Shown: positions 5,060 through 38,504 of the stretch, piece by piece
How positions within the stretch are numbered: position 1 is the stretch's first letter
How the letters are laid out: the number at the start of each line of letters is the position of its first letter
Origin: a virus
Virus record (IMG/VR): IMGVR_UViG_3300008450_000005
Coordinates: 32,001 to 96,000 of that record
Reading direction: 5' to 3' (one strand)
Length of the DNA: 64,000 bases
Notes under the pieces: model-generated
Database searches by the model: none
What the model saw: only the letters and a program-made list of their open reading frames with translations
What the model was told of the DNA's origin: nothing
Translations under genes and position numbers: made by a program

Positions 5060-5582
5060 CAAATATAGCCAATATCTTCCGGACAATCCGGAATTAGCCT
5101 ACAATGCCACTGGTGTTAAATTCCAGTCATCTGTAACTTCGCCCTTTAATAAAGAGGACCTGTACACGGATGAAGCAGTAGCATTGGCAAGGTCGGAGAG
5201 CATGGGATGTTCGGGTGCAAGAACTATTTTGGTTTCCAGTACCGGCCAATATAAATATGCGCCATGCTCAGATATTACTACGTATAGAACTATTTCTAAG
5301 CAGCTAACACAGACACAGGAAGAAAGACGTTATTACGCATTCTTCCCAGACGAGAATTTAACCGATATCAAAAATAGCATCAACGACCGTGTTTATTCTG
5401 GATTCGACTATAAAGAGGTCATTCTAAAAAGAAGCATGTCAAATGTTTTCTTCAGAGATCCTGTCAAGGACTCGATCTTAGCTACTTTTAATCGTGTTAT
5501 TTTCGGTGTGATTGAAAGCGTAAAGGAAATAAAAAACTATTTTAATTATACAGTACCAAGAAATAACAAAAGGGTGTTCTAA
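5052..5582 (+). CDS. Baseplate-region protein with a DUF3721-like Cys motif
   Basis: LYTDEAVALARSESMGCSGA....KYAPCSD resembles the DUF3721 pattern Y.T..EA...A...GC.G...MPC. Confidence 0.45.
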   Translation: MVNKYSQYLPDNPELAYNATGVKFQSSVTSPFNKEDLYTDEAVALARSESMGCSGARTILVSSTGQYKYAPCSDITTYRTISKQLTQTQEERRYYAFFPDENLTDIKNSINDRVYSGFDYKEVILKRSMSNVFFRDPVKDSILATFNRVIFGVIESVKEIKNYFNYTVPRNNKRVF

Positions 5583-8500
5583 TGTCGAATTCAGTCAATT
5601 TAAACTTAAGATTTTTTGATAAGAGCGGGAGCCCTTTAAATTTCGAATACGTCGGGCCTACCGGATCATTCCCTAGTGTAGACAACTCGTCCTATTTTAT
5701 CACCAGTCTTTCATCGTCCTCACCCGGGCAGATTAATCTTTCTACCCTAGGGTCAGGATATTTTGAAATTAACCATTTCGATAGAAATAGCTATAGTGTG
5801 CTGGCCTGGTCTCAGCGGATTGAAGAGTGGCTAAATTTCGGATCAAGCATCACCGTGGTTTTAGAAGTTCAAGGCGGACAAAGCATTGAAATCTATGTTG
5901 ATTCTATTTCTATATCGGCTAACTACTCTACCCTTAATTTTACCAGATACAATGGTAACCTGATCGTTAGTTCCGATAGAACGGTAACTGTTAAAACCGC
6001 TTATCGTGATGCACCAGGTGGTTATTATACTGGATTTATTTACTTTGACAATGTCAGCGCAGGTCTATTCGAGAACGAGCAGATCTTTATCATCCAGGAA
6101 TTCAAAGACACTTCAGGTAATACTATCTTTGGATATCCACACTCTGGATTAACCGGAACTTCTGAGCCTGTCCAATGGAGAACACGCTGGAATAATAGCT
6201 CGTACGGTAATGTCGATGTAACAGACATTATTTTCACGTATCAGATCACGGAAAGCGACCCTACAATCGGCGGTGATCCTAGTATCAGCAATTACCCCAA
6301 CCTCATCTATACCATTCCCGTTGAGTCTACCGATTCTTTGGCGGATGGATTTGCAGTTACCTCTTATAATCTTGAAGCTCCTATCACAATTAGTGCAGCT
6401 ATCAATTCATCAAACGTAGCTGCAGACGTTTATGAGAGACAGCTTATCATCGAGCAAATAGTTGGTTTGACCGGAGCAGCTCCTCTAAAAATTGCGGAGA
6501 TAAATTTCTACGGACAGATTGAAAGCGAGGATGAAAGATTTTCCACCCTGCTAGAGAATCTGGGAAGAACCCTAACAGCGGATGAAACTATGGTTTTCAG
6601 AGACCATGACCCATCAGAACCCTTGCCTAACTACGTTGAGCTAAACGTGAAGCGTAAGGAGCTTATGGTGGCTGGTGAGCAGATATTCCCATATCTCGGA
6701 TCGTATAAAGGTCTGATCAATGCTCTAAGATTTTTTGGATATCAGGACTTAAGGATCAAAGAATATTGGCTGAACATAGATTACAAGACCAATACAACTC
6801 CTGGGGTATCAGTACTTGAAAATCAGAAATATCTAGACTCTCTTAAAAAGCTTCCATACTCTAATTCTTTCATGATTGATGAAATCATAAACAGCCCTAA
6901 TTCAGGGAAGTTTAGGATGGTTCAAACATATGGCCCGGATCAGGATGGAGTTTATCGATTAGATGTAGCAAATGAGGATACTATCGTTCCCAGCGGAACG
7001 TATAAGAAAACAGCCTTATTCGGACTATACTATGACCTGAATAAGGTAACCAATACAGAAAACGAATTCGGCTATCCGATAGTTGATGACTCTTTCTTAT
7101 TTTCACAGGAGGAAGTTTTAGTTAAACTTTTCTCTCTTAAGCAAATTCTAAAAAACAAGTACCTCCCGATTAATGCGAGAATAATCGATATTACCGGAGA
7201 GGGAATCTATTTTAACGTTTATAACACTAAAAGCTGGTCCGATGTCATGGACCGCTTTGAGATCAACCTAGGAAATGATGTTGATTTCATAGTTAATCCA
7301 GATTTCGGATATCTTGAAGATCTACGAAATTTCGGTGTACGATATTCAACGTCATCTATCCAGATCCCGATGAATTATGGTGCTACTGGAGGATTTGATG
7401 TAACACTAGCCGGATCTACCGGTGGAACTTCTGCTGGCGGGGCTTTAAAATTTAGTGGCTTTTCTGGTAACAATCCAACAATAGAATTGACCCGTGGTAA
7501 AGAATATGAATTTACCAATCTTACTGGTTATGGGCTTTACATTACTACTGAGTCTTCTCTTACACAGGTTGACCCGCTTGGGATCATTTCTAACGGAGCA
7601 ACAGGAGGACAAATTATTCTGAATGTTAACCCACAGGAACAAAACTCACTCTATTATTACCTGGATGTAAATTCGGTTGTACTTAATGGACAGATCAATA
7701 TTGTCAACGCTTCAATTTCTGATCTTGGCAATACCATCCTTCCTTTAGACAGCGGACAACAGTACACGGGAGACCAGAACCTGGCAATGATTCAGGCTAT
7801 CTCTGAATTCTATACTCTTAAACAGAATGGACAGATAGTCGAGTTTATGGATTCCAAATGGGATCCGGAGGCTTATATCAATCCAGACACAGGAGAAAGA
7901 TGGGTGAATCCTGTCGGAATGCCCATAGTTTTTGAATATGACGTTGATCAATGGATGTGGGACGAGATGGACGTAAATTGGAAATCTCTGTATTCACCAT
8001 ATAGTTTAGGACTTACCGGTTCGACACCAACTAATTTCAATTCTATTTTAACTTGGAATAACATTAATTTCGGAAACTGTAACGAGATTGAATGGATCAT
8101 CACAAAAAGCGCAAGCAGTGCAGGAAGTCCTTACTATTTCTCATATCGAGGTTACATAATGGATTTCTATAGACTTGCTCACTTTGTTCCTTATACGGGC
8201 ATCTACGACGTGCAATGCAACGTTTATGATGCCAACAACTCAATCCTAAGAAAGATTGAAAAGCAAGTCTTACAGGTTGCACCCAAACTAATCGATCTTC
8301 AGGCTTGGACAAGATACAGAGAAAACGAATTTTATACCTGGGACTACACCATTAAGGATTGGGATACTTACGAGTCTAAATGGCTTTATCCTGCCGAGGG
8401 TATGACCGAAAAACAATTGGAGCAAAGACTTCCACCCGATCTTTTGGACTTTGCCTTTTATGGTAACAATGCTTCAGAGGGAGAAGAAATAGATGTTGAA

Positions 8501-9649
8501 ATAACATCAGGAGGTCGCGGTGCAACTGGCTCATTCAGCATCTCACAGAACGTATTAACCGTAACTTCTATAGGCGGTCCTAGAATAACAGGGACTCAGT
8601 TTGGATTATGCACAGTAACCACAACAACACCTCATGGACTTTCCAATGGAGATTATGTTTACATCAAAAATTCTATCGAGGTTGTCAACGGAAAGTGGCA
8701 GATAATCTACGATAGCACACTTGCTTCTAATCAATTCAAGATACCAGTAGTACTTTCACCACAAGCTGGAATCCTTGTTACCCTTTCGCAGATCACTGTC
8801 GACACATCTCTTTACCCGAACATGCAAGTTGTAGGTGAAGGGACTATATCGGTATCTGTGAATGGTAGGGTAATTGGTGCTACGGCTGGAGGATCTACGT
8901 TACAATCGACTGCAAATTCTATAGTAACCCAGATAAATTCAGTCATCACACAGCCTGATTTCTTTGCTACGACTTTTAATCCAGCTGCAAATCCTTGCTC
9001 GATTCTAATTTCATCACCATCTACTTCTGGTGCAATCTATAATGGATATCCGCTATCAATAACTGCTACCGGATCTATTCAGGTAGTTTCACAAGATATA
9101 ATTTTAAATGGTGGACAAAACATCGACAACGTGTATGTTCAATGGGACGAAAGCCAGGAGGAACTTCCAAATGCTAATTTGAAGTATTGGGGAACACAAA
9201 ATCTCGTCTGGAAGAATTTCAACGAGGTTACGTGGGACGCAGGATATGCTCATTCGTGGTGGGATTTTGAATACAATAATACTTGGTTGGGAGGATTTGA
9301 AATCCACTCTTCCTTGGTTGGAGATAGTATCAAAGTTGATACAGGAAAACAAACAACTCCGTTTGCTAACGGAGTTACTTTCGTTGGATTTGGTGCTACT
9401 GGGGCAAGCGGGTATTTAACGCTAGGTCAGGTGGCAGATCAACTTAACGCATCTACCGATCCACATATTACCAATTTCTACTATAGAGTTTTCCCGTCCG
9501 GATATGATGACTTTTTGACCATCACCGGACCTAGCAATCGTGTTATCACGAATGTATCATCACCAACAGGTACCTACCCTGCTCCTCCATCAGTTTTGGG
9601 AGCAAATCCAGTACTCTGTGTTGATTTCACTTACGCAACAGGACCATAA
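5582..9649 (+). CDS. Large baseplate wedge/structural protein (gp7-like)
   Basis: 1355 aa; YLGSYKGLINALRFFGY..L.IKEYW wedge-type motif; beta-rich and G/S/T-rich; follows gp6. Confidence 0.6.
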   Translation: MSNSVNLNLRFFDKSGSPLNFEYVGPTGSFPSVDNSSYFITSLSSSSPGQINLSTLGSGYFEINHFDRNSYSVLAWSQRIEEWLNFGSSITVVLEVQGGQSIEIYVDSISISANYSTLNFTRYNGNLIVSSDRTVTVKTAYRDAPGGYYTGFIYFDNVSAGLFENEQIFIIQEFKDTSGNTIFGYPHSGLTGTSEPVQWRTRWNNSSYGNVDVTDIIFTYQITESDPTIGGDPSISNYPNLIYTIPVESTDSLADGFAVTSYNLEAPITISAAINSSNVAADVYERQLIIEQIVGLTGAAPLKIAEINFYGQIESEDERFSTLLENLGRTLTADETMVFRDHDPSEPLPNYVELNVKRKELMVAGEQIFPYLGSYKGLINALRFFGYQDLRIKEYWLNIDYKTNTTPGVSVLENQKYLDSLKKLPYSNSFMIDEIINSPNSGKFRMVQTYGPDQDGVYRLDVANEDTIVPSGTYKKTALFGLYYDLNKVTNTENEFGYPIVDDSFLFSQEEVLVKLFSLKQILKNKYLPINARIIDITGEGIYFNVYNTKSWSDVMDRFEINLGNDVDFIVNPDFGYLEDLRNFGVRYSTSSIQIPMNYGATGGFDVTLAGSTGGTSAGGALKFSGFSGNNPTIELTRGKEYEFTNLTGYGLYITTESSLTQVDPLGIISNGATGGQIILNVNPQEQNSLYYYLDVNSVVLNGQINIVNASISDLGNTILPLDSGQQYTGDQNLAMIQAISEFYTLKQNGQIVEFMDSKWDPEAYINPDTGERWVNPVGMPIVFEYDVDQWMWDEMDVNWKSLYSPYSLGLTGSTPTNFNSILTWNNINFGNCNEIEWIITKSASSAGSPYYFSYRGYIMDFYRLAHFVPYTGIYDVQCNVYDANNSILRKIEKQVLQVAPKLIDLQAWTRYRENEFYTWDYTIKDWDTYESKWLYPAEGMTEKQLEQRLPPDLLDFAFYGNNASEGEEIDVEITSGGRGATGSFSISQNVLTVTSIGGPRITGTQFGLCTVTTTTPHGLSNGDYVYIKNSIEVVNGKWQIIYDSTLASNQFKIPVVLSPQAGILVTLSQITVDTSLYPNMQVVGEGTISVSVNGRVIGATAGGSTLQSTANSIVTQINSVITQPDFFATTFNPAANPCSILISSPSTSGAIYNGYPLSITATGSIQVVSQDIILNGGQNIDNVYVQWDESQEELPNANLKYWGTQNLVWKNFNEVTWDAGYAHSWWDFEYNNTWLGGFEIHSSLVGDSIKVDTGKQTTPFANGVTFVGFGATGASGYLTLGQVADQLNASTDPHITNFYYRVFPSGYDDFLTITGPSNRVITNVSSPTGTYPAPPSVLGANPVLCVDFTYATGP

Positions 9650-9651
9650 TT

Positions 9652-11490
9652 ATGCCAGATCCAATATTGAATATTTTACAGGGAGAGCAGGTTTACTTCG
9701 ATCCAGATTCTACGGTCGGAGCTACCGCATCTTATTCCTGGACGTTTCCGGGTGGAACCCCAGGAAATTCAGCATCACATTACCCTGTGGTGACCTACAA
9801 TAATATTGGCGATTATAATGCAAGTTTAACCGTAACTGATACCTACGGTACCTCAAGAACTTTAACTAAATACCAGATAATTAGTGTAGATAAGAACGTA
9901 CTCACAGTCAATTTCACAGTTCCTGGATCACCGGTTGAAATGAACGAATTGTTCACCATCACCGACACATCCTCACCGGTTCCAACCGATTGGGAATGGG
10001 TATTACCAGGTTTTGCAAATATTGTTGGTGTACAGAACCTAACAAACTATCAATACGGAGACTGGTATGACGCTACAGGCACTTATCTGGGTGATCCCGG
10101 GGCTACTGCTTCAATTCCGATTCAACTGACAGCAGCGACGAACTTCGACATAGGAACGAAGACCCAAAATATGGTTGTTAAAAAATTAGGAGCTGGTCAG
10201 GATGAATTTGATCTTAGCTACGAATGGGTTTCCGTTTACGGTCCAACCGCTTATGTGATGACCTCGTCATTGGGAACAACCGCTGGCGCTCCATTTACAT
10301 TAGGCTCTTACGGTCTTACAGGAAATTCAACTGGATTTATTGTTGTCGTGGATCTGACTGCTATGAGAACTTTGGGCCCGGCAGTACCAGGAACCGGATT
10401 TCAAACGAATAATTATTTCCATTCTAACGAAGAGATTGCCCAATATACCGGACACTTTGGCTATGTTGAATCGACGTCTCCATATCCATTTGGATTAACG
10501 GGATATGTGATTGTAGATTCTTCTGCATACACCACAGCTTTATTTTCCCTTAATACACCGATCACAGCTGGACGCTATATGCTTAAAGACTATGTTCTTG
10601 GTAACAGAGGGGGAATGTTCGCTGACCGTGGTGCATTTCTTAGAACCAAATGGAACGCAGTTTCTTCAGGCGGACGTGCTTGGCCTTTAGCTCTACTGAA
10701 TGAGTTCCTGAATATGGCAGCAAAAGTAAGAATGCTTTCTCGGGACGTTGAAGAACCTTATTTGTCTGTTGGCGGAACGGGAGGAGGATTCCCACCTTTA
10801 CTTTACACGAACATTTTGTCGTCCGTGCACGGTAACTTTACGATTTCAAATTATGGGGTAGTTGCTATTCCTAGCTCAGGATTTATGCTTCCCAGAACAA
10901 ACCCCGCCGGAGACCAATACTTTAAGATTTATATCACTGTACACTGGTCCAATGGTGTTGACCTGGTTCAAACCAATTTTGATGCGTCTGCAGGATTGTC
11001 CGGTAATGACGGATATGGATTTTTTAAAGCCCAGGACGTAGGTCCAAATCTTGGTATTGCATCGGTGTTAAACCAGTCGATAACAAGTTATTTCACACCC
11101 ATCGGTAGTGGTATAATTCCAATTAGGGTTAAAGAAAGCGAAGATTACAATCCTTATTTCGTGTCTACAAATTTTGTCTATGGATTAACGGGATACAATA
11201 ACAGATCTGATTACCACGGTATTCTAATCGAATCAATTGACGCAACAGTTACTAGAATAGAGATCACCGATAATTCATCACTCGTACAATGGACAGTTGT
11301 CGTAGCACCTTCAACCGGTGTAGGACTATCCGGACCTGCTGCATTCCCAAGCGATTGGCTGAATCCATCTAACGCAAGGTTCAGGTATGCTTCATGGCTT
11401 GGTTGCGTAGATGATCAGACCCAGCTTAACCCGATGCCTGGTATCATCCCAGGTCCCAGCGGAGGATGGTATTATGGTGGAAGTTTATAA
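9652..11490 (+). CDS. PKD-domain virion protein
   Basis: PKD signature SYSWTFPGGTP......PVVTY...G.Y...LTVT and a second F.D.S...PT.W.W repeat. Confidence 0.7.
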   Translation: MPDPILNILQGEQVYFDPDSTVGATASYSWTFPGGTPGNSASHYPVVTYNNIGDYNASLTVTDTYGTSRTLTKYQIISVDKNVLTVNFTVPGSPVEMNELFTITDTSSPVPTDWEWVLPGFANIVGVQNLTNYQYGDWYDATGTYLGDPGATASIPIQLTAATNFDIGTKTQNMVVKKLGAGQDEFDLSYEWVSVYGPTAYVMTSSLGTTAGAPFTLGSYGLTGNSTGFIVVVDLTAMRTLGPAVPGTGFQTNNYFHSNEEIAQYTGHFGYVESTSPYPFGLTGYVIVDSSAYTTALFSLNTPITAGRYMLKDYVLGNRGGMFADRGAFLRTKWNAVSSGGRAWPLALLNEFLNMAAKVRMLSRDVEEPYLSVGGTGGGFPPLLYTNILSSVHGNFTISNYGVVAIPSSGFMLPRTNPAGDQYFKIYITVHWSNGVDLVQTNFDASAGLSGNDGYGFFKAQDVGPNLGIASVLNQSITSYFTPIGSGIIPIRVKESEDYNPYFVSTNFVYGLTGYNNRSDYHGILIESIDATVTRIEITDNSSLVQWTVVVAPSTGVGLSGPAAFPSDWLNPSNARFRYASWLGCVDDQTQLNPMPGIIPGPSGGWYYGGSL

Positions 11491-11508: not shown

Positions 11509-14500
11509 ATGCCCGCTAACGATTTAAAGATAACACAGATAAAGCTCGACAACAAGAATAGGGTTTGGGCAGTAGGACAAGATATTTCTTATTTTGATGG
11601 AGATAATTGGACATACCTAAACTATCAAAATTCTGCTCTTCCGAGCAACGATCCATATTATCTAGATACCCGGTGCTTAAGCATTGATGCTGATCAGAGC
11701 AAATGGATTGGATGCGCTAATGGACCATGCATTTCAGATGTTGCGGTCACCAAATTATATGGTCAGGACAATGAAAAATCAGAATCCTGGACATTCACCG
11801 AACTTGGCTTCACCGGAGGATACTATCAATGTCCGGTAATCGAGGCAAGCCCTTATGGATCAGAAGTTCTAGCTTTCATCAATTCTTTGAATGATGGCAT
11901 AGGTGTAACCGGAACAACAGGATTTATTGGAGCCACCGCGGGTAATTTATTAATCTATAACACAGAGGCGAGGGAGTGGAGAAATATTCTGGGAGAAGGT
12001 AATACTATTCCTCGTGTTTATACTATTCAGCCAAGAGGTTTAGATGGATTCTCTTATGAATATTGGATAGGAACATCTAACGGTATCTGGATCCTTAAAG
12101 ATTCTTATTACCAGACAGAAAATTTATACTCGGAAAGTATCTACGTACCTCACGTTAAGGTTCTTACCACTGAGAATTCTGGATTACCAGGAAATCAAAT
12201 TAGAGCAATCGAATTTGATGAAAATGGTAATGTGTGGATAGGCACAGAATCTGGATTTTGCTTCTATGATTTTAACGAATGGCAAGCATGGAACTCATCA
12301 TCATTTACCAATCTTTCGTCTAATCTTATAACTACCATAACTGTTAGACCCAATGGTCATATATTCTTTTCAGCAGGGGAAGGGGAATTGAAGCAGGGAA
12401 CAGGACTTTACCATTTTAATGGATCATTTCTTACCAATTTCGATGTATCAACGGGCGATTTACCAAACGACAACATCATCTCCGCTGAACTGATATCCCA
12501 AAATACACAAAATGATAATTTCAGGAATTACACAAACGATCTCTGGATATCTTGTTATAATGATTTAGTTCAGTTCTCATACGTAATCCCACACGTAAGA
12601 GCTACATCGGATTACGAGGGCGCAACTGGATGGGATTTTGTAGACTATACCAACACAGATTCACTCAGATTACCAAAAGCAAACAAATACACTTGGGATT
12701 ATCCATCGTGGAGCGGGGACGACTTCGATTATTTGATGAGACAGCATCCTGGGACAGATCCTAGATTGCTTTTCGTAAACTCTGATTTAGAATCTATTAT
12801 CACTGGTGAGGTAGGAAATCCTAATTTTTATTCTGCTGGACCAATTCCTTTATCCTCTCAGATCCAAACTGCAGAAGGTCTAACCGGATCTTCTTTCCTC
12901 GTTAGTGCAACAGGAGGAACCGCATACATCACAACATCTACCACCAATAATGGTAATGTAATAGTTGGTGGTTATACTAATGCAGCTGGCGTTTATTTAG
13001 GATATAAGAACGGATCAAACTATGTCCAATTCGCAAACCCGAATCCAACCAACGCAGGATCACCTGTTCCGGCTGGGTCTAATTTGAATGCTGGTTTCTT
13101 GGCTTATTATTCAAAATCGGGACAGCCTTTAGGTGCTATTCCTTTTAGAGGATATTCAACTAAGGTACTTTCGGTTTCCTCTGGATTCAACGACGAATCA
13201 ATCTTCGTAGCTGGAACTTTCCGCAGATATTTGGAAGTTGGCAAATTTGTTTATAATAACGTATATCCGAACGCTGCATCTCTAACAACAACAGGGATCA
13301 CCGGTCCAACCGGAGGACCTATTGGATTGTCTTCTTTATATTACCCAGGTATCACTGGTCCAACCTTTGAGTACCCTTGGATTCTGAATGGAGCAACCGC
13401 ATCAGTGAGTGGTCCATTTATTCCAGACCCTTCCTTGATCTCAAATGATGCAGAGTCATTATTCGTTCTAGAGATTGACCACAATCTTGGATCTAGCATG
13501 AGCTTTGGTGACATCAACTTTGGAGTAACCGGTGGATTTGAAAGATCTTATAAAGTAAAAAACTTTAGATACTTCCCGATTGCTGCAAGCGATTTTGATG
13601 CTACTGGTGTAACTGGAATCTTTGGCTATTTGAATACCGAAAGCATTCATTTGGATGCAGGGAATAAATGGGTCAATGTGGTTCTTGGTGTATCTGGAGG
13701 ATATAGCACTCTAGCAAACCAGTGGGAATTTACTAACGATCTTCCTAATAATAACCCATTTGAATTTTCATCATACTCATCAGGATATCTACAATCTGGC
13801 AGTATGATTCAGCTTGATAGAGATTTGAATCTCTATGATAGCTTCATAACAGCAGGAACTGGTAACACACACTTCAACCAGTCAGTTCAGGATTCATCTT
13901 CAAACACGATTCTGGTAACCGGATCTACAAACCAAAATTTCACATTCGGTAGTACTGGTTCAACTGCAGCTAACAATCTTGGACACGAGCCTTTCTTCTT
14001 CGTAACTGACAGAAATGGAACAGTGACAAGTAAAGGAATCCAGATTGTTAAAAGAGGTTTCTACGATGACGAGAATTATGGCGTCTTTGCTTTCTCACAT
14101 GAAGGATTATATTCTGTAGCTACCATAACTGAACAGAATCCTAATTATTCAATAAACCAAGGATCATATTCAGTTACTGGAGGCACTTCATTCTACGTTC
14201 AAAGATTCACTCCGAATGGAATGATTAAGAAAGAATTTTCTTATCCGATCAATGATTCTTTTGCTTTCTTAGACGAGTCTATCATCACCGAGAGAGATGA
14301 ATACGTTTTGAATATGAAACAGTTTGGATCGACAGGTACAACTGGCTATTACAAAGCTTATAAATTATCTTTATCTGGTACTTTGAATGATACTCTAGAT
14401 TTAACATCCAACCAAATTGAGGTTGCAGGACTATCTCTGGCTTACGATGCAGATTCTAATCTTTACTATAGCATAACTCATTCAGGAGCAACTGGAGCAA

Positions 14501-15123
14501 CCGGAATTGCTTTGCCTTCTTCGGTATCTAAAATACCTTCTGTTTTCAAAATCGCCCAGTATAATCCCCCGATCGGTATCAATTACGGAAACGTTGATTC
14601 CAGATATGGCGAAGGATCCTGGAATTGGTGCGATGTGCACATGAATGGATCTAATTTCAAAATCCCTCTCATGAGCACGGTCTTCATGACAAACTATCCT
14701 TCTGATATCTACGGGAAGAATATGAATACGTGGAGATTGCTCGACTCGAGATCTGGCGATAAGATTTTGGATGTAAGAAAAGTACCTTATTTCATTTATA
14801 CGTTTATCAAGCCTGGTTTCTATACTCTAGAAAATTCTGTAGAGGATGCAAACGGGAACGTCTATGAGATAACCCAGAATGCTTTCATCGAGGTCGTTGA
14901 TCATACCGCTAAAAAAGAAGATGATCCGGATCCGTTTGTAGTAAATTCCTCAGACTACGGCTACACAGTTCCTAAACAAACCCAGGAAGTGAAGATTAAT
15001 GATCTTTCTAAAGATCTATTAGCTGAGCAAATGAGAATATTGAGACAAGCTGGTGAGAATCTTAAAGGATCTCCGTTACTTTTGAAAAACGATCCAGACG
15101 CTACATTTAGACCTATAGATTAA
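11509..15123 (+). CDS. Beta-propeller (Reg_prop-like) virion/receptor-binding protein with a C-terminal PKD-like domain
   Basis: Blades NSALPSN, NSGLPGNQIRAIEFDENGNVWIGT, LSSNLITTI and GDLPNDNI; C-terminal YTFIKPGFYTLENSVEDANGN. Confidence 0.65.
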   Translation: MPANDLKITQIKLDNKNRVWAVGQDISYFDGDNWTYLNYQNSALPSNDPYYLDTRCLSIDADQSKWIGCANGPCISDVAVTKLYGQDNEKSESWTFTELGFTGGYYQCPVIEASPYGSEVLAFINSLNDGIGVTGTTGFIGATAGNLLIYNTEAREWRNILGEGNTIPRVYTIQPRGLDGFSYEYWIGTSNGIWILKDSYYQTENLYSESIYVPHVKVLTTENSGLPGNQIRAIEFDENGNVWIGTESGFCFYDFNEWQAWNSSSFTNLSSNLITTITVRPNGHIFFSAGEGELKQGTGLYHFNGSFLTNFDVSTGDLPNDNIISAELISQNTQNDNFRNYTNDLWISCYNDLVQFSYVIPHVRATSDYEGATGWDFVDYTNTDSLRLPKANKYTWDYPSWSGDDFDYLMRQHPGTDPRLLFVNSDLESIITGEVGNPNFYSAGPIPLSSQIQTAEGLTGSSFLVSATGGTAYITTSTTNNGNVIVGGYTNAAGVYLGYKNGSNYVQFANPNPTNAGSPVPAGSNLNAGFLAYYSKSGQPLGAIPFRGYSTKVLSVSSGFNDESIFVAGTFRRYLEVGKFVYNNVYPNAASLTTTGITGPTGGPIGLSSLYYPGITGPTFEYPWILNGATASVSGPFIPDPSLISNDAESLFVLEIDHNLGSSMSFGDINFGVTGGFERSYKVKNFRYFPIAASDFDATGVTGIFGYLNTESIHLDAGNKWVNVVLGVSGGYSTLANQWEFTNDLPNNNPFEFSSYSSGYLQSGSMIQLDRDLNLYDSFITAGTGNTHFNQSVQDSSSNTILVTGSTNQNFTFGSTGSTAANNLGHEPFFFVTDRNGTVTSKGIQIVKRGFYDDENYGVFAFSHEGLYSVATITEQNPNYSINQGSYSVTGGTSFYVQRFTPNGMIKKEFSYPINDSFAFLDESIITERDEYVLNMKQFGSTGTTGYYKAYKLSLSGTLNDTLDLTSNQIEVAGLSLAYDADSNLYYSITHSGATGATGIALPSSVSKIPSVFKIAQYNPPIGINYGNVDSRYGEGSWNWCDVHMNGSNFKIPLMSTVFMTNYPSDIYGKNMNTWRLLDSRSGDKILDVRKVPYFIYTFIKPGFYTLENSVEDANGNVYEITQNAFIEVVDHTAKKEDDPDPFVVNSSDYGYTVPKQTQEVKINDLSKDLLAEQMRILRQAGENLKGSPLLLKNDPDATFRPID

Positions 15124-28135: not shown

Positions 28136-29662
28136 ATGGCTGAACCAAGTATACTATCATTTAATTATTCCGACGATCAGTTAGAGATTGTAAGAAAATT
28201 AAATTACAATTTCGAGCAGATCTCCGCCGCAGATGGTGGGGTTCAAGGACCAATCGGCCCAACTGGTGCTACTGGATTAATAGGACAGATCGGTCCAATT
28301 GGTCCAACCGGTAATACCGGTCCGAGAGGAAGTAGATGGTTTGTAGGCGGGATTGAAGCACCGACTGGAGGATATGGAGATGTAACGGTTGAAGGAGACT
28401 ACTGGATCGATACCGATGCTATAGAAAAAACTCTTTATGTTTTTGGTCCATCGGGATGGCTTGATACAGGCTATGACTTGATACCCGAGGACGAGTTTAA
28501 GTTTATCCCTGATCTAATTACAGCCACTGGTGCAACTTCTAATTTTTTGGCAATTGTCCAGAACACTCTTTTACCATCGTCAAACACATTCGTTTTAAGC
28601 GACGGTAATCCATCTATTGAATTAACCAATCCCGATTATACAAATTTCCTGATCACGACAGACCCTGGGGTTAATCAGTATCCGATCATGGAGTTCTCTC
28701 GCAGCGATGCGACTATAATTGGAGCTTCAGGTTATTTCAAAAGACCAATTTGGAGATGGACTGGCGGGGATAATGACTATAACTTGGCTTTCGCTGTCCC
28801 TAGCGATAGGCTAACTATTTTGACCAAGTCGGGAATAACCGGAACCGTCACAAATAAGGCAAATTTCCAGGCGGATGATTCACTCTTTTTGACCAGCAAA
28901 TCAACAATAGATTTCACTTCAGGAGGTCCTTCATTCTTCAATACTCCCGGATCTTTGGGTATTACAGCATCAAATTTATCACTAAATAGTACAAGGCTGG
29001 AAACTGATGTTGATTTGAAAATCCAGACTATACCTGGTAAATCTCCATCAAATGATCCAGTTTTCGGTAATTACTCTCTCTGGATAGACAACCCTTCAGG
29101 GACATCCTTATTCTTGGGAGCAACCGGTATTGCCACAGGTGGCAATCATTTAATGGTTGCAAAGAAGGATCAAACCAATTTACTCGAAGTTAGAAGCGAT
29201 GGAGTATTTTACGCTAAGAAAAGAACCACATACAATAAAAGGCCGGTTTTCAATTCTTCAAATTCTATCTCAATAGATTATGGAAGTGGATTGATAATCT
29301 CCTGGTATTTCATAACTGCATCTAGCCTGTCCTACAATAATACATTCCTTATTGATGTAAATCCGGCCAACGATATCGGTGTGGCCGTTAACGTAAGATC
29401 TGGAGACGGTGATAACGTTATGAACTTGCTAGAAAAATACCAGTCCATGAAAATAAACGTTCTAACTAGCACGAACGATCCGATGAAAAAAATCAAATAT
29501 CTAGGATATTACACTGGTTCTCCACCATTGGTAGGCCAATATATAAAATTTGGCTCAGGATTGAACCAGGCTGAATTGGAAGTTCTCAGAGGAGACGGTA
29601 TCACAGCAACTAGCAGTAGAATTCTTTATTCATCGAATCAGGGGTCGGGTAGATTGCTTTAA
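28136..29662 (+). CDS. Collagen-like tail fibre, paralogue A
   Basis: KLNYNF, then 11 Gly-X-Y triplets, GSRW and GDYWI. Confidence 0.7.
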
Positions 29663-29896: not shown

Positions 29897-31504
29897 ATGG
29901 CCGATTTAAAGCTTGTTCGGATTACAAAAGGAGATACCCAAACGGTACTCATAAATAAATTAAATCAAAATTTCGGAAGGATACTTTCTTCCGGCGGAGG
30001 AACCTATGGAAGGACTGGACAGGCAGGAACAATTGGCAACCCTGGGCTAACAGGTCCAACTGGAGACTATGGATCACCTGGTATCAGAGGATCTAAATGG
30101 TTTGTCTCGAATCTAGAACCACCCACAGGACTAACCGGATATTATGATGGTGACCATTGGGTAGTATCAACTGATGACTTCAAAGATTACATTTTAACTG
30201 GCGGGGTTTGGACTCCAAGCGGTTTATTTCTAACCGGAACTCAGTTTTTCACCAAAATCGAAGACATCAAGGATAGAACCGGCGATCAGACTAAAAATGC
30301 AATCGTCGAATTCACATCTACCCCATCTTCAACAACCATGGTTTTGTCTGATACCACCACGAGTACTTCGTATGGTAACAGTCAATATTCAAAATTCCAA
30401 ATATCCACTATTGGATCAGCTGGTAGAAATGTCCTAGAATTCTCTAAATCTGAATTACAGGACGGAACCGGTGCGGAAGCTTCGAAACATCCATATTTTG
30501 CATGGGAATTTGATGCAACACCGAATGATTACAGTCTAGTTTGGGGAATGACCGGCGGAGGATTCTTTTTGTCTGCTTCTGATTTGGCTATGATATCCCA
30601 AACTTCTGACTTTGAAATAGGAGTTACCGGAGCGATCATTTTTGATAATTCAAGTTCTCTGTTTCAATTTTCTAAAGAAAACATTGAGGTATCAACCGGG
30701 TCAGATTTTTATCTTTCATCAACAAGCACAAGTTTAGGAGCTACCGGTCTATCACTCTCCGGCAGTTTAAAGATTAACTCGGATTCAGCAACGGTTCCGG
30801 GAGTTACTTCAGATTCGTATATTACTGACGGTGGAAATGTTAGAATAACCTACACTACACCAAGCTCACTCAATCTACAGGATTCTCAAATCTCCTTAGT
30901 TAACGTAGTCCACGATTCAATCACAAACCCACTGTTCTTAAGCACAGCAGACGGCGAAACGAGATTTGCAAATTTATCTGAATCATATAACCAGGACCTA
31001 ACCGTTTTATCTGGCGCAACGGGAGCATATACCCGTGGTGGCACTGGATATTATATAAATTGGGCATCGGTTTCTCCAGCACCGGTCGGACCTACTGCCG
31101 ATCGTTCTCTTGCATACTTTAACACCGTAATAGTAAGTCCTTCGGGATTAACAGGTGGTGGAACAGCGGGCAATCCATTTAATGGGGTCAGCTTTTTAGG
31201 CACTTACGGATCAGGAATGAATAATAACCCTCTTGCTAAGATGATCGAAGAAAATAGATCATTCTCCCTCACTGTAACAGGGACTACGCAAGACCATTCA
31301 TTTAAAGCTGTTGGGATTGGAACTTATTCTAATCCAGCATCTCCTTTCCCGAATCCGTCAGTTGGTTCCGAATGGCAGATTTTACCATTTGCGTCACCGG
31401 CTGTTACTTTCCATGTCATGAGATTACCAAACAACGGAGCAACTGGTAGCTGGAGGGTTTTCTTCGAGGCTAATAAATTTTCAGGATTACTTTACGAGGC
31501 ATGA
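29897..31504 (+). CDS. Collagen-like tail fibre, paralogue B
   Basis: KLNQNF, then 11 Gly-X-Y triplets, GSKW and GDHWV. Confidence 0.7.
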   Translation: MADLKLVRITKGDTQTVLINKLNQNFGRILSSGGGTYGRTGQAGTIGNPGLTGPTGDYGSPGIRGSKWFVSNLEPPTGLTGYYDGDHWVVSTDDFKDYILTGGVWTPSGLFLTGTQFFTKIEDIKDRTGDQTKNAIVEFTSTPSSTTMVLSDTTTSTSYGNSQYSKFQISTIGSAGRNVLEFSKSELQDGTGAEASKHPYFAWEFDATPNDYSLVWGMTGGGFFLSASDLAMISQTSDFEIGVTGAIIFDNSSSLFQFSKENIEVSTGSDFYLSSTSTSLGATGLSLSGSLKINSDSATVPGVTSDSYITDGGNVRITYTTPSSLNLQDSQISLVNVVHDSITNPLFLSTADGETRFANLSESYNQDLTVLSGATGAYTRGGTGYYINWASVSPAPVGPTADRSLAYFNTVIVSPSGLTGGGTAGNPFNGVSFLGTYGSGMNNNPLAKMIEENRSFSLTVTGTTQDHSFKAVGIGTYSNPASPFPNPSVGSEWQILPFASPAVTFHVMRLPNNGATGSWRVFFEANKFSGLLYEA

Positions 31505-33009
31505 AAATTAACAATAAATATATTAGAACAGGCGACCCTGCTTCTACAATCATCGATAAATCGAATTTCAACTTCGATCAAATTCTAGCGAGTGGATTTG
31601 GTGGAACCGGCTTCAATGGAGTTAAGGGACCAACCGGCGTAATAGGAAAAATTGGGCCTGATGGACCACAAGGAGCTACAGGTGTAAGAGGTTCTAATTG
31701 GTATCAGCAGAACACTTCTCCTTCAACAGCAGGAGCAAGTCCTTATGATTACTGGATAAATACTTCTAGCACGAATCAAGACCAGGTTTATTACTATGCC
31801 GGACCAACTTCTGGTTGGGTTGATTCGGGAGCATCTCTCAGAACTAATGGGGTCTTTGCTGGTGTTCAATCACTTTTGGGACCAGAAGGAGCTACAGGTT
31901 ATTCCGCAATTGTTATTAACGGCACTGGCGGAAGCCAAGCCAGAACTACTTTTGTCTATTCTGACACTGTATTTTCGGCTATCAACGCCAATCCCAATTT
32001 AGCGAAGGTTTTAATTAGTACTGATAGCGAATCGAACGATGGAGCGATCCTCGGATTTTCTAAGACAACCACGAATGCACCAGGTTATCCAAGTTTCTAT
32101 TGGGCTTCTACCGGAACAGATTACAGTCTTTCGTTCGAAACCAATTCTGCTTTGAGCATTACATCAGGCAAAGAATTTGGAATACATTCAGATTCAACTT
32201 TTTATCTTTCTTCTTCCGTCCTAGATTTTAAATCAGGAGGAGTTTTTTCTCTAGGAGCAACTGGAAACATTTCAATAACATCCGATCCTTCTATCCAGAT
32301 AACTTCCACCGAATTAAGCTTTAGAGGAAATCAAAACACTTTGAACGTTCCTCTTATCTTGAGCAAAGCAATAGGATCAACCGGCTCATACAAGATCGAT
32401 GTCGAGGGCAGCCTATTCAAAAGTGGATTGATACTGACGTCAGCGGGTGCAACATCTAGCCCAGATTTATTAAAAATCAACAATACTGATGGCATAAACC
32501 TTCTTAAGACCAAGCAGAATTCACAGACTGTAATTGGGCTTACCGGGTCAACCGGTGCACACATCGTTGATGGCTTCAGAAGCATCGATTGCAAGTTTAT
32601 CCCAACCGGATCAACTGGATCAATCACTTATGGTATTGTCGATTTGACAAGTCCCGATTACTTCAACGTCAATAAAATCTATTTGGCTTTCCCGTCGAAC
32701 ATAAACACGTCATACGTCGATCCCAGATTTTACGTTTCACTTCCTTCACCATCTTTAGACATAAAGATATCCAATCCCGGACATGTTTCTGTTTATAAGA
32801 TTTTTAATGGTGGGACCGGTTACAAATTGAATGGCATTGCATATCAGGAAAAGAAAAACATTGGTAATAATGCTGTTATACTGGAAAGGAGAATAGATTT
32901 TCCAAATCCAGATGACGTAGAAATCCTAACTTTAACATATACAGGAGATCAATCCTCATTCTTTTATAATATTGGAGCGACCGGTGCTTTTGTTAATATG
33001 AACGCTTAG
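31501..33009 (+). CDS. Collagen-like tail fibre, paralogue C
   Basis: KSNFNF, then 11 Gly-X-Y triplets, GSNW and YDYWI. Confidence 0.7.
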   Translation: MKINNKYIRTGDPASTIIDKSNFNFDQILASGFGGTGFNGVKGPTGVIGKIGPDGPQGATGVRGSNWYQQNTSPSTAGASPYDYWINTSSTNQDQVYYYAGPTSGWVDSGASLRTNGVFAGVQSLLGPEGATGYSAIVINGTGGSQARTTFVYSDTVFSAINANPNLAKVLISTDSESNDGAILGFSKTTTNAPGYPSFYWASTGTDYSLSFETNSALSITSGKEFGIHSDSTFYLSSSVLDFKSGGVFSLGATGNISITSDPSIQITSTELSFRGNQNTLNVPLILSKAIGSTGSYKIDVEGSLFKSGLILTSAGATSSPDLLKINNTDGINLLKTKQNSQTVIGLTGSTGAHIVDGFRSIDCKFIPTGSTGSITYGIVDLTSPDYFNVNKIYLAFPSNINTSYVDPRFYVSLPSPSLDIKISNPGHVSVYKIFNGGTGYKLNGIAYQEKKNIGNNAVILERRIDFPNPDDVEILTLTYTGDQSSFFYNIGATGAFVNMNA

Positions 33010-33325: not shown

Positions 33326-34097
33326 CTTATTATTCTTGGCTATAGGAATTTTAGCTTTCTTACTACTAAAACAATGTAACTCAAGTTCTGCGGCCGAGGA
33401 AGAATTGGCAAGATTGCAGAGAAATGCTCTGGCTATGTCTGACACTTTGAAGATTATTAAATCTGAGAATGGCAGAATGGTTGTAGAAAAAAGTTCTTTA
33501 GAGCTCAAAGTTTCCGAACTCAATTCAGATCAAAAAGCTTTGATTAAAAGATTGGAATTTTCCAATGCTAAGCAGCCTGAGATGATTATTCAGACTGAAG
33601 TGGTTTACAGAGACACCGGTATTAAGGCAACTTCTACCGTGGCGAAGACAACCGATTCGACAGGAAACTTTAAATTAGCTTACACACCAACACTTCCAGG
33701 CAAAAATAAATTTGCTATTTCAGGAGATGTACCTTATCTTCTCCGAAAATTGAGGGATAGCGGATCATTATCAAAATATGCTGTGTTTCCAAACGGAGAC
33801 GCCAAGCTAACAGTTGAACAAACCATCGATGTTGTTGCTGGGCTATACACAGATCCAGAAACTAAGCTTCTCAAAATCAGATTATCGACAGATTTCCCGG
33901 GCATCAGCTTCGCAAACGTCAACGGAATTAAAATAGTTGACAACGCTGAAAGCAGAAGAGCTCTGAGAGATAGTCGGAAAAATTTCGGAGTAGGATTCAA
34001 TCTTGGATATGGCTTGGGCTTCACCCCAAGCGGCTATAATCTTGGCCCATATCTTGGAATTGGAATACACTATTCACCTAAAATCTTACAATTCTAA
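33306..34097 (+). CDS. Membrane-anchored coiled-coil protein with a C-terminal beta-hairpin (spanin-like)
   Basis: N-terminal hydrophobic helix ending LLLKQC, a coiled coil, then C-terminal FGVGFNLGYG...GPYLGIGIHYS..LQF. Confidence 0.5.
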   Translation: MKTAYTSLLFLAIGILAFLLLKQCNSSSAAEEELARLQRNALAMSDTLKIIKSENGRMVVEKSSLELKVSELNSDQKALIKRLEFSNAKQPEMIIQTEVVYRDTGIKATSTVAKTTDSTGNFKLAYTPTLPGKNKFAISGDVPYLLRKLRDSGSLSKYAVFPNGDAKLTVEQTIDVVAGLYTDPETKLLKIRLSTDFPGISFANVNGIKIVDNAESRRALRDSRKNFGVGFNLGYGLGFTPSGYNLGPYLGIGIHYSPKILQF

Positions 34098-36493
34098 TGG
34101 CAACATATTCAACGACATCTAAATACGTTCAGCTGACCTCCTGGTTGTTGATGGAGTACATGTATGCGGACAATCCAAATCCCGAGGTGTACACAACAAA
34201 TGACGTTGGATATAATAGAATCGTCAACGGGTACAGAGATAATGATGTCCAGGCTTTCAACCTGAATGGTGACTATACTCAAACCCAAAATACAGCTGCA
34301 GTTTCTGTAGTACAGGTCAGCGATCAGAGATTTGTTACACTTAACCAAGATCTGATTGTTCCTTATAACGATTACACATCACAGCTAACACCTTCGTCAC
34401 AGATGACCGTGTCATTTCCTTCGAATCTATCAATAACTTACGATTCGGTAAGATATTGGATACTTGCAGGATATAACCTTTCAAACATCGATGGTGTTAT
34501 CGTTCAGATACAAGCTCAGGACCAGGATTTAAGTTTCGTGACATTGTCACAGATTCTACTTAGAAGAACTAGCGCTGATCTCTATACTTTTTCTCCTAGT
34601 CCTCTTTCAGTTGGATCGAGCATCTACGACAAATATTTCGAGATAAGCATTCCGAGTTTACCGTCCATGATGAACTCATACGAAGCGGCTCCGGCTGGTA
34701 GTAAGAGTGCTCAGTTAGCATCGAAGATCTCCAAGAGTGGCTTTGGATTTGTAACGAATTCACCTCTTAGAATTACAGCTTTCCAGGTAGGTTCGATTCA
34801 AACCGTTGATGGTTATGATAACTATTTAACCCAAACAATTGATACCCTAAGTCTCGAAGCTGAAGATCCATTCTCAGAAGTTGCAGCTTACATTGCACCA
34901 TCAGTTAATGGACAGTTTTTTGAATACTTTGCCACTTACGATGGCGGATTCATTGAAGATTTTATTCTCTTCCAGAATTCAATCGGAAACGCTTATGTGA
35001 TTTCCCACCAGATTGAAGTTTTGGAGCAGATCGGAGCAGCTTTGATTGAAACTTCCAATTTCACATCTCTTCAGACAACCGGATACGATATACCAAATCT
35101 TTACCGTCCGATCATCAGAAATGCAGCGGTTGCAGTTTCTTTCACATTAAAGTATACTATGACCCTTGTCAATAACGCAAATCAACAGCGTGTTGTCAGA
35201 GTAAGCTCATACACCAGCACTGATCCACATTCATACGGTACCACAATTCAGCCAATAACGCTGTCTAATGCACCTCAGGTTCAGAAAATCTATAATAAGA
35301 TTCTTTCAGCACCTGCCATTCAGCTATCATCTGACGTGTTTAACTCTCAGCTGGGAGCTAGGGAGGTTATCCGTATCAATAACGTTTTTGTAGATAATAC
35401 GAATGTTAATCTAGGCATAACCAATCTTGCGATTAATAATAATTCAATCACCCCTGATCCATCTGGAAGTTCTACCTCGGCTAGAATTATCTATTATGGA
35501 AAGGGCAAATCAGAGATTGATATTTCTCCGTTCGATAATTACTTTAAGTTTACTGTCATTCTTGGCTCAACAGGCACAACACCTAAAGCCATGAATTTCG
35601 ACACTGGTGGTACTTATTACATCCAATTCATTGATAACAACGGAAAGAAATTATCAATACCTAATATTTCGAATTCAAATATTGCTAATCCAGCCAAAGG
35701 TGAGTTGGCTTTTAAAATAGACGAGACTTTCTCGACAAAGATACTTCAGTTTACTGATCGTACCTTCTATATCACAAATAGATCTCCGCAGCCAGGGGAA
35801 GATAATCAGGTTAAGGATAATACTGTCTCTACCGCGGTATCGATTCAAGATGTTCGTGCTACTACAACGTCTTCAAATAACATATCTCTAAATAATATCT
35901 TCGGCATCCCCGCTTCTTCAGTGGTTTATTGGGGATATTGGAAATCTGAAAAAGAATCTTCAAGATTTATTGGAGCAACCGGAGCAACCGGTCCGATCAG
36001 AAGTACTAGACCATTCGGTCCTACAGGACCTATAGCTGCTTCCAATCAGCCCGACGGTGTTAATCTATTAAGAAATACACCTCCTGTCGCTGCAGCCGGT
36101 TTAACTGGTGGTTCAGCAATAGGCAGATCCGGTGGAAGCCGTCCTCTTAACACATCCAATCTAACTCTCGATGAAAAACTCTCTGCAGTTTCTGCTTCAG
36201 TTGAAGGATTTGTAGACAAGGGGTGGACAATAGAACGCATAATTGCATACTTCTTGAAGCCAGGTGAAATTGGATATCGCTTATACAACTTATCCAAAGA
36301 GGACTTCAAATTAGCTGTTGTGGGGATTTTCTCTGCTGCTGATCTAGGTCTAATCGATAACTTTGGCAACACGCAGAGCGGAAGAACAAATGGTGGACAG
36401 GCAGCAAATAAAGGGAGAGTAACTCAAACCGGTGGTGGAAATACATCAAATGATCTTGAAAATAGAGCAACAAAGGGAGGTAGAATGCTATGA
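34097..36493 (+). CDS. Structural protein
   Basis: 798 aa and beta-rich with GATG/GPTG motifs; coupled to the tail-tube-fold gene. Confidence 0.5.
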   Translation: MATYSTTSKYVQLTSWLLMEYMYADNPNPEVYTTNDVGYNRIVNGYRDNDVQAFNLNGDYTQTQNTAAVSVVQVSDQRFVTLNQDLIVPYNDYTSQLTPSSQMTVSFPSNLSITYDSVRYWILAGYNLSNIDGVIVQIQAQDQDLSFVTLSQILLRRTSADLYTFSPSPLSVGSSIYDKYFEISIPSLPSMMNSYEAAPAGSKSAQLASKISKSGFGFVTNSPLRITAFQVGSIQTVDGYDNYLTQTIDTLSLEAEDPFSEVAAYIAPSVNGQFFEYFATYDGGFIEDFILFQNSIGNAYVISHQIEVLEQIGAALIETSNFTSLQTTGYDIPNLYRPIIRNAAVAVSFTLKYTMTLVNNANQQRVVRVSSYTSTDPHSYGTTIQPITLSNAPQVQKIYNKILSAPAIQLSSDVFNSQLGAREVIRINNVFVDNTNVNLGITNLAINNNSITPDPSGSSTSARIIYYGKGKSEIDISPFDNYFKFTVILGSTGTTPKAMNFDTGGTYYIQFIDNNGKKLSIPNISNSNIANPAKGELAFKIDETFSTKILQFTDRTFYITNRSPQPGEDNQVKDNTVSTAVSIQDVRATTTSSNNISLNNIFGIPASSVVYWGYWKSEKESSRFIGATGATGPIRSTRPFGPTGPIAASNQPDGVNLLRNTPPVAAAGLTGGSAIGRSGGSRPLNTSNLTLDEKLSAVSASVEGFVDKGWTIERIIAYFLKPGEIGYRLYNLSKEDFKLAVVGIFSAADLGLIDNFGNTQSGRTNGGQAANKGRVTQTGGGNTSNDLENRATKGGRML

Positions 36494-37053: not shown

Positions 37054-37060
37054 GAGTTTA

Positions 37061-37068: not shown

Positions 37069-37096
37069 GTAAACAAATAGAAATAAAAGCAAGACA

Positions 37097-37330: not shown

Positions 37331-37333
37331 TGA

Positions 37334-37675: not shown

Positions 37676-37679
37676 GATA

Positions 37680-38504
37680 ATGGAATATGTTCAATTCATA
37701 CTGAATACAAATAGTTCGGGACAGAACACTACCCAATCATTCCCGCTGGAAGCAATTTCGGAGATATATTCAACCGAGGATGCTGTGGTTCTATTTTTCG
37801 ATTCAGTTTCTGCAACTTTAGCTGGTGAGATAAACAGTAGAAAATACTATTACGGAACTAGAATTACCCTTTTCAAAACTGGAAATGGCAACAATATTCT
37901 TGGTGGTTTATTAAACGCTCTATCTAAAGCTTATTGGTCCGATGCTGTTTTCCCTACCATTATAAATTTAACACAACTTACAAATACCATAACCGTTGAA
38001 GATATTGTTGGTTCTAGCTATCCTGCGGGAGGAACCGGCGCATTCATGCCATGCGGGTCATTTTATGATACAACATCACAGCTGAGCGGTGGTATAACTG
38101 CTGCTAATATTATTACATTTAACACCACGACTATAACCAATGGCGTTTATGTGACTGGCGGATCCAGGATGACCGTACAGTATCCCGGAATTTATAATAT
38201 CCAATTCTCCGCACAAATAGACAAAACGGATAGCGGTATCGATTTCGTAGATCTTTGGCTCTCTAAAAATGGAGCAAACCTCCCCGATAGTAACACCTCC
38301 CTGTACCTTCCTGGAAATAACGCTAAAGTGGTTGCCGCATGGAACTTCGTGATCGCGGCTTCGGGCGGAGATTATTTTGAATTAGTTTGGTCTTCGACCG
38401 ACGAAGATGTTTTATTGTATTATCAAGGACCTACCTCAGGTCCATTACGTCCGGCAATCCCCTCTGTCATTGCATCGGTGACCTGGGCGGGAGCTACAGC
38501 TTAA
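37680..38504 (+). CDS. Protein with a C-terminal C1q/TNF-like (BclA-CTD-like) jelly-roll domain
   Basis: GSFYDT..Q...ITFNT...GIYNIQFSAQ...WL.KNG...WNFVI...GDY.EL...PSVIASV. Confidence 0.55.
   Translation: MEYVQFILNTNSSGQNTTQSFPLEAISEIYSTEDAVVLFFDSVSATLAGEINSRKYYYGTRITLFKTGNGNNILGGLLNALSKAYWSDAVFPTIINLTQLTNTITVEDIVGSSYPAGGTGAFMPCGSFYDTTSQLSGGITAANIITFNTTTITNGVYVTGGSRMTVQYPGIYNIQFSAQIDKTDSGIDFVDLWLSKNGANLPDSNTSLYLPGNNAKVVAAWNFVIAASGGDYFELVWSSTDEDVLLYYQGPTSGPLRPAIPSVIASVTWAGATA

Follow-up and report, generated by a model that had tools for sequence, protein, structure and literature searches.

A recurrent G-x-T-G motif in the baseplate and fiber proteins of a large phage, with a phage GT2-TPR enzyme as its candidate glycosyltransferase

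In a 64,000-nucleotide stretch of virus DNA (bases 32001-96000 of the 116,157-base contig IMGVR_UViG_3300008450_000005; hereafter, the window), the four-residue pattern G-x-T-G occurs 78 times in 12 consecutive baseplate and fiber open reading frames (ORFs) at 5582-38504, and a glycosyltransferase of family 2 with tetratricopeptide repeats (GT2-TPR) is encoded at 60852..62078. The results supported the conclusion that G-x-T-G is a specific protein-level short motif that recurs across unrelated tail proteins and bears signs of selection. An initial annotation of this DNA had proposed that the motif is a portable glycosylation sequon modified by the phage's own enzyme. That proposal gained from the selected short motif, from the placement of the enzyme in a GT2 branch that acts on peptides and proteins, and from collagen-like genes near the enzyme gene in related clades, and it lost from clade C, in which the enzyme is present without scattered sites. 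It is therefore only tentatively that we favor G-x-T-G as a Thr O-glycosylation site written by the phage GT2-TPR enzyme, a reading that we regard as quite possible but short of probable; the link between enzyme and motif is circumstantial.

The per-ORF counts given in the initial annotation were reproduced exactly. Two null models were applied, namely, shuffles of whole proteins and local shuffles confined to segments of 15 to 50 residues, the latter preserving Gly- and Thr-rich patches. Whole-protein shuffles led to an expectation of about 8 sites against the 78 observed (z of about 23 to 25), and local shuffles gave 9.6 to 11.1 sites, with a maximum of 23 in 300 trials. Sites were scored as isolated if there was no Gly at -3 or +6, which places them outside any GXY run; there were 43 of these compared to 7.5 to 8.2 expected, and about 45% of all sites were in GXY register. 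The enrichment thus survived the composition control (78 versus about 8 to 11 in total; 43 versus about 8 for isolated sites). The view that most sites fall outside collagen tracts and in unrelated proteins also held, since 43 of the 78 are isolated and only three of the carriers are paralogues: BLAST among the 12 proteins detected similarity solely within the trio starting at 28136, 29897, and 31501, with no internal repeats.

Among gapped tetrapeptides in the 12 ORFs, G.TG was by far the most enriched (9.4-fold). The second was G.TA (21 versus 5 expected; 4.1-fold), in agreement with the recurrence of GxTA variants remarked upon in the initial annotation. No enrichment was found in these ORFs for G.SG (1.1-fold), A.TG (1.0-fold), S.TG (0.7-fold), G.TS (flat), or the reversed pattern GT.G (1.35-fold), and, as a matter of arithmetic, the excesses of the TG dipeptide and of G.T vanished once motif sites were removed. 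Position x was occupied by A, L, P, S, G, V, or I and was charged in only 1 of 78 sites. The residue following the motif was A, S, or G in 39 of 78, and the one just before it was often hydrophobic (35 of 78). Codons were mixed at all three fixed positions, with a moderate preference for ACC at the motif Thr (47% versus 28%); because the codons vary, the signal lies at the protein level and does not reflect a DNA word. The other ORFs of the window held only two sites, one in the helicase at 42064 and one in the N-terminal part of the family B polymerase (PolB) at 54664, exactly as had been claimed for the nonstructural genes, and all ORFs of the 116-kb contig outside the module held six.

The carriers, all on the plus strand, begin with a 1,355-amino-acid (aa) baseplate-distal protein (5582..9649; phrog_28177), which has 9 sites, 7 of them isolated, and of which 5 are kept in orthologues of 47% identity. 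It is followed by a 612-aa protein with an N-terminal PKD domain (9652..11490; 4 sites) and by a 1,204-aa protein with a Reg_prop/HTCS-like propeller blade (11509..15123), whose 15 sites are the most in any single ORF and of which 4 are kept in the orthologue from the complete sister genome, G002. Downstream lie a 301-aa fiber-like protein that is present in all clades (15856..16761; GPTG195, GATG227, and GVTG235), structural proteins of 736 aa (16788..18998; 3 sites), 1,213 aa (19001..22642; phrog_29329; 3 sites), and 1,823 aa (22661..28132; phrog_31887; 7 sites), and the three fiber paralogues of 508 aa (28136..29662; 6 sites), 535 aa (29897..31504; 11 sites, 8 isolated), and 502 aa (31501..33009; 11 sites). 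A 798-aa structural protein encoded upstream of the tube-like gene (34097..36493) has 5 sites, and a 274-aa ORF (37680..38504) has 1, which is not above chance. The fiber paralogues begin with true short collagen-like runs, the 508-aa member at its N terminus; these runs of about 8 to 10 triplets scored 16 to 17.5 bits against PF01391, below the cutoff of 27.2. Sequence searches of the PDB with four of the large proteins returned nothing usable beyond one propeller blade. That blade, at residues 224 to 268 of the 1,204-aa protein, resembles those of Bacteroides hybrid two-component glycan sensors (PDB 3v9f; E value, 1e-10) and could be a module for sugar binding that was acquired from a host.

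The major head protein (genome coordinates 8738-10441; phrog_138) has a single site, and the head protease, adaptor-like, wedge, and tube-like proteins of the contig have none. On this contig the motif is therefore a mark of the baseplate-distal and fiber module, and its initial description as virion-wide was too broad here. The sheath gene is located outside the 116-kb contig. In G002, the tail sheath (phrog_34521) has six sites, all before residue 780 and outside the conserved sheath core, and the capsid orthologue has three, so in the sister genome these two proteins carry the motif as well.

Conservation was assessed from pairwise alignments of 11 orthologue pairs with G002 (29 to 66% identity). 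The motif Thr was conserved in 39 of 73 cases (53%), compared to 276 of 779 (35%) for other Thr residues (Fisher P = 0.003), and of the 34 that were replaced, 15 had become Ser. Motif Gly residues were conserved no more than other Gly residues (64% versus 65%). The flanks of the sites were only 32% identical, compared to 43% overall, and the sites lay a median of 8 residues from an alignment gap versus 18 (P = 4e-6). Weak flanks and nearby gaps indicated that the motif sits in variable, probably loop, regions and yet is itself retained. Whole sites were held in common with G002 in 23 of 77 cases, and in 23 of 46 in the reverse direction. Since few sites are common to orthologues, sites must have been gained and lost while the excess over chance persisted; indeed, in an alignment of the fiber family, all 15 sequences held 4 to 11 sites versus 0.5 to 1 expected, partly at different columns.

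Across the lineage, module totals were 78 for this contig and 48 for G002, compared to 12 and 13 in clade B (G003 and G004) and 15 in clade C (G005). Isolated sites in clades B and C numbered 7 or 8, near the expectation of 4 to 5, and their orthologues of the large baseplate proteins had none or one. Scatter in the very large baseplate proteins is thus specific to one clade. No motif excess was found near the wedge gene in Lak-B5, LR756500, LR756504, MaF61, or PTm1, which gave no match to the glycosyltransferase, or in LR745206 or LR756501, which did; the structural genes of the cultured MaF61 and PTm1 and of the huge-phage records are not syntenic, making these a weak control, and the lack of excess in such distant relatives bears on the structural question and not on the enzyme link. 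Two of the modules showed other compositional patterns. The structural module of G004 has P.PA 41 times (2.3 expected) and A.TP 43 times (2.9 expected), a Pro/Thr/Ala repeat suggestive not of GxTG but of a PT-rich linker or a mucin-like region. In LR756501 (a 735-kb record), the module immediately following the wedge gene has 31 G.SG versus 2.1 expected, the likely carrier being a 695-aa ORF (30598, plus strand) that holds the module's four GxTG sites and would be a Ser-type collagen-like protein.

The initial annotation had expected the sites to map to surface loops on predicted structures. A loop position was seen in one protein. In an AlphaFold2 model of the 301-aa protein (predicted local distance difference test [pLDDT] score of 73; 70 to 91 in the C-terminal domain), GPTG195 and GATG227 link consecutive strands and GVTG235 follows a strand, so that all three are loops at strand ends. 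The model of the 535-aa fiber protein, built from a 15-sequence alignment, reached a pLDDT score of 47.9, too poor for site mapping. Foldseek comparison of the 301-aa model with the PDB returned only weak rows for tailspike, gp9, and gp10, with E values above 0.01. GVTG235 and the PTGF element of the 301-aa protein are conserved across all clades.

The gene reported at 60852..62078 (plus strand) was found to be real and intact; it encodes a 408-aa protein with an N-terminal GT2 domain of GT-A type and a TPR part, the candidate writer. Its match to PF00535 spans residues 31 to 119 (30.8 bits versus a cutoff of 23.3; 31.8 bits in the genome scan) and is the only match to that family on the contig. 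The best solved relatives are SunS (E value, 4e-7; residues 30 to 250), GmaR (1e-5), and a ThuS-like enzyme. The D-A-D of the enzyme, in IIDADDEF, aligns with the IDAD of SunS and GmaR, and the SunS alignment crosses it and runs through residues 200 to 250 into the first TPR. A weak TPR match was obtained to ANAPC3 (E value, 8e-4), and relatives in the same cluster carry the TPR families PF13432, PF13431, and PF12895. These matches support placement of the enzyme in the GT2 branch whose members glycosylate peptides or proteins at Gly-flanked residues. Members of the family are common in metagenomes, many of them on contigs of 200 to 430 kb. Homologues were also noted in two huge-phage records. 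In LR745206 (635 kb), the homologue and the baseplate wedge gene are only about 3 kb apart (546390-552067), and the homologue in LR756501 (168635-169798) lies elsewhere in the genome from its wedge.

Some 22 kb separate the enzyme gene from the end of the structural ORFs. Its neighbors in the window, none of them a substrate gene, encode ribonucleotide reductase (RNR), adenylate kinase, a GHKL ATPase, and a 174-aa protein. A promoter-like GAAAAC-N17-TATAAT element can be read upstream of the enzyme gene (60784..60851, plus strand) and would presumably drive its expression. A different element, GATATATA(A/G), precedes 13 of 36 genes in intergenic regions, many of them structural, at 10 to 60 bases before the start codon (upstream of window positions 2969, 15856, 29897, 37097, 43624, 53319, 56166, and 62172, and of others on the contig), and is a candidate late promoter. 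The 174-aa ORF (62172-62696), with the GATATATAA motif upstream, directly follows the enzyme gene in all clades at 33 to 52% identity and could be a partner of the enzyme.

Gene neighborhoods were compared across clades. The enzyme orthologue (62 to 68% identity in clade A' and 43 to 48% in clade C) follows RNR and adenylate kinase in every clade A' and clade C locus long enough to include this position. A collagen-like GxT ORF lies between the two RNR genes, 2 to 5 kb upstream of the enzyme, in about 12 of 17 such clade C loci; these ORFs are 108 to 809 aa long and hold up to 176 GxTG, e.g., as (GPTGET)n, the longest passing the Pfam Collagen model at 243 bits and another at 108 bits. The clade B contigs are all interrupted within a collagen-like gene (G[ST]S/GxT) that closely follows the polymerase gene, and five independent ones (L086 to L089 and L104) end in this same repetitive gene, about 2 kb past the polymerase. 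Such a break in the assembly makes downstream genes look missing; an absence of the enzyme from G003 and G004 was accordingly rejected, since both contigs end before the syntenic place. A longer clade B contig, L090, gives the order as two collagen-like ORFs, three paralogous ORFs, a DUF6445 protein, a GT2, and a 373-aa enzyme homologue (26% identical over 238 residues; E value, 1e-19) whose alignment covers the GT-A domain and reaches into the helical part, the collagen-like ORFs lying some 6 to 9 kb upstream of this homologue and the second GT2. The three paralogous ORFs (L090:15516-19653; 743, 305, and 314 aa), which sit between the collagen-like genes and the DUF6445 protein with the two GT2 genes, have the common N terminus FQLPGTVQTNNPVLLHEWAGPFSG, and the largest is Cys-rich.

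In clades A and A', no collagen-like gene was found in the enzyme region, though these are the clades that bear the scattered motif. This complementary pattern, collagen-like neighbor versus scatter, is the strongest circumstantial support for a pairing of enzyme and motif, and it involves few independent lineages. As to the covariation of motif and glycosyltransferase raised in the initial annotation, the enzyme family adjoins collagen-like GxT or G[ST]S genes in two clades, but clade C has the enzyme without an excess of scattered sites, and the enzyme alone does not predict scatter.

According to the explanation that we favor, G-x-T-G would be the unit of the phage's Thr-type collagen-like runs, acting as a short portable motif that is placed in loops and short collagen-like segments of baseplate-distal and fiber proteins. 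Its Thr would be O-glycosylated in the infected cell by the soluble GT2-TPR enzyme, the GT-A domain with its D-A-D using a host NDP-sugar and the TPR part binding the protein substrate. In related clades, genes of this enzyme family adjoin that of a dedicated, long collagen-like protein of GxT or G[ST]S type; in this clade, where that neighbor is absent, single units are spread across the outer tail proteins and would coat the host-facing end of the virion with sugar. A broader version is possible too, and we hold it more loosely: a minimal sequon derived from the collagen triplet and a SunS- or SgtA-like GT2-TPR writer would belong to the whole lineage of large Bacteroidota phages, with the substrate having moved from one BclA-like protein (clades B and C) to dozens of loop sites in baseplate, fibers, sheath insertion, and capsid, and so yielding a sugar coat on the virion.

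Several observations weigh against this explanation. GxSG is not enriched here, although SgtA accepts Ser in vitro (PMC7157674). The conservation of GVTG235 and PTGF suggests a long-standing role in the fold for some sites. In clade C, the enzyme is retained (46 to 49% identity), and the baseplate module has 8 isolated sites versus 4.6 expected. The enzyme gene sits among RNR, adenylate kinase, and topoisomerase-like genes and lacks the GATATATA(A/G) upstream motif; any expression timing would be read from such elements alone, and an enzyme made earlier could persist until the late proteins appear. Sugar-nucleotide genes are absent among those encoded in the window. The enzyme would also have competitors, since two more GT2 genes, with ORFs of 240 and 565 aa, are present in the complete sister genome and four glycosyltransferase orthogroups have been described in the lineage pangenome (PMC12619734). 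Finally, a gene of the thymidylate synthase family leaves a small chance of DNA modification.

A purely structural role, in which the motif is a minimal collagen- or polyproline-II-like unit or a tight turn in beta-rich trimeric tail proteins and its unmodified Thr is kept for conformation and hydrogen bonding, is a possible but rather unlikely explanation. It would account for the share of sites in GXY register, the collagen-like starts of the fiber paralogues, the hydrophobic residue that often precedes the motif, the strand-loop-strand turns formed by all three modeled sites, and the presence of GVTG235 in every clade of the 301-aa family. Bacterial collagens prefer Thr at Y positions, and the strict choice of Thr over Ser matches that preference. 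However, the major head, wedge, and tube-like proteins, which are other beta-rich virion proteins of the same genome, have at most one site, as do the orthologous large baseplate proteins of clades B and C, and positions turn over while the excess persists. The motif also spans unrelated proteins, and a general turn preference would not be specific to a clade or module. That the enrichment is an artifact of composition, paralogy, or a DNA-level signal was rejected, with next to no probability left to it: although the proteins are rich in Gly and Thr and ACC is overused at the motif Thr, local shuffles within 15 residues gave only about 11 sites, reversed and neighboring patterns were flat, codons varied at all positions, and BLAST limited paralogy to one trio.

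The motif might instead be a modification site with a different writer, either a host system or a further glycosyltransferase of the phage whose gene lies beyond this 42%-complete contig, with the GT2-TPR enzyme serving only true collagen-like segments or another protein. The additional GT2 genes of the sister genome, the pangenome orthogroups (PMC12619734), and the enzyme of clade C without scatter all fit this reading, but we consider it unlikely, given that the enzyme is the only PF00535 protein on the contig, that its family acts on Gly-flanked peptide residues, and that it is linked to collagen-like genes in two clades. Most improbable among the enzymatic readings is a nonvirion target for the GT2-TPR enzyme, such as phage DNA bases or a host protein, with the motif being independent of it. 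The gene does lie among nucleotide metabolism and replication genes, and the thymidylate synthase family includes hydroxymethylases. To our knowledge, however, none of the phage DNA glucosyltransferases described so far is of the GT2-TPR type; proteins are what TPR domains bind, all of the closest solved relatives are peptide or protein glycosyltransferases, and the collagen-like neighbors in clades B and C point to protein substrates.

We know of virion glycosylation by phage enzymes only in mycobacteriophages, and we know of no defined sequon for it. If G-x-T-G is such a sequon, glycosylated phage surfaces would become predictable from metagenomes through a four-residue acceptor motif, there would be an explanation of why these large aquatic phages keep several glycosyltransferases, and a small pair of tag and enzyme would be available for glycoengineering; the clade comparison further hints at a route by which a sequon might pass from a single dedicated substrate onto many proteins. 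A purely structural motif would still be an unusually clear instance of convergence, in which unrelated tail proteins of one lineage gained the same motif.

The contig is estimated to be 42% complete, and its close relatives are 250 to 290 kb. The plus strand carries almost all genes of the window. The wedge-like protein (3344-5059; phrog_219) has relatives of 64% identity in uncultured IMG/VR contigs of 250 to 290 kb and more distant matches in Lak megaphages and in Tenacibaculum, Flavobacterium, Chryseobacterium, and Sphingomonas phages; a nucleotide search of the phage collection returned no near relative of the window. Genes for DnaK, a gp32-like protein, RNR, a UvsW-like helicase, and the N-terminal part of PolB are also present, and this content fits the large aquatic Bacteroidota "moraphages" (PMC12619734). 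The Hsp70/DnaK gene (51330-53228) is full length (831 bits to PF00012), a trait reported for large aquatic Bacteroidota phages (PMC12619734). The 471-aa ORF at 54664-56079 holds only the exonuclease and motif A part of PolB, which indicated that the remainder is encoded elsewhere and the polymerase is split.

Moraphages are related to Lak phages, encode a DnaK homologue, and have several glycosyltransferase orthogroups (PMC12619734); likewise, DnaK is encoded in the window, and its wedge protein has matches in Lak and other Bacteroidota phages. The likeness is one of shared traits, and the GxTG motif is unmentioned in that paper. Among enzymes, the closest parallel in substrate is SgtA of Clostridioides difficile, a GT-A and TPR protein encoded beside bclA3 that adds beta-O-linked N-acetylglucosamine (GlcNAc) to Thr in the GPT collagen repeats of BclA3 and tolerates Ser in vitro (PMC7157674). 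Judged by published description, the phage enzyme is alike in having an N-terminal GT-A domain and C-terminal TPRs; the SgtA acceptor is Thr in G-x-T-G, the candidate acceptor here, and in clades B and C the enzyme gene is likewise near a long collagen-like gene. In contrast to that system, the window has no adjacent collagen-like gene, more than half of the phage sites are single units in noncollagen proteins, and the acceptance of Ser by SgtA has no counterpart in an enrichment of GxSG in the phage.

In sequence, the best solved relatives are SunS, ThuS, and PalS (PDB 7msn, 7msp, and 7msk), with which the GT-A core, the D-x-D, and the start of the TPRs could be aligned. The Cys that these enzymes glycosylate lies in a Gly-Cys-Gly-Gly/Ser loop, and Ser is a further, O-linked target of ThuS (PMC6405829), so that there, too, the nucleophile is in a Gly-flanked loop. 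Their substrates, however, are small disulfide-stapled peptides that are encoded with a transporter and thiol-disulfide enzymes, and the acceptor is Cys or Ser with Gly at -1, whereas the phage motif has Thr with Gly at -2 and +1. No Cys-rich precursor, ABC transporter/peptidase, or thiol-disulfide oxidoreductases were found among the ORFs of the window. GmaR, the Listeria flagellin O-GlcNAc transferase (PDB 22ao), is similar in its GT2 catalytic domain (E value, 1e-5) and modifies a surface filament protein before assembly. Its alignment covers only the N-terminal 94 residues. We know of no sequon that the two share. Mycobacteriophage glycosyltransferases decorate the phages' own virion proteins, with glycans reported at the C termini of capsid and tail tube subunits (Freeman et al. 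2023, as cited in PMC12619734). The features of that system, Ser/Thr-rich C termini and a glycosyltransferase gene beside the structural genes, were not found here: the head protein has one site and the tube-like protein none, and the enzyme gene is some 22 kb away. The two systems would nevertheless be alike in the use of phage-encoded glycosyltransferases on the phage's own virion proteins, which is proposed here from sequence; the difference is that the candidate sites of this phage are internal loops of baseplate and fiber proteins and follow a defined four-residue pattern.

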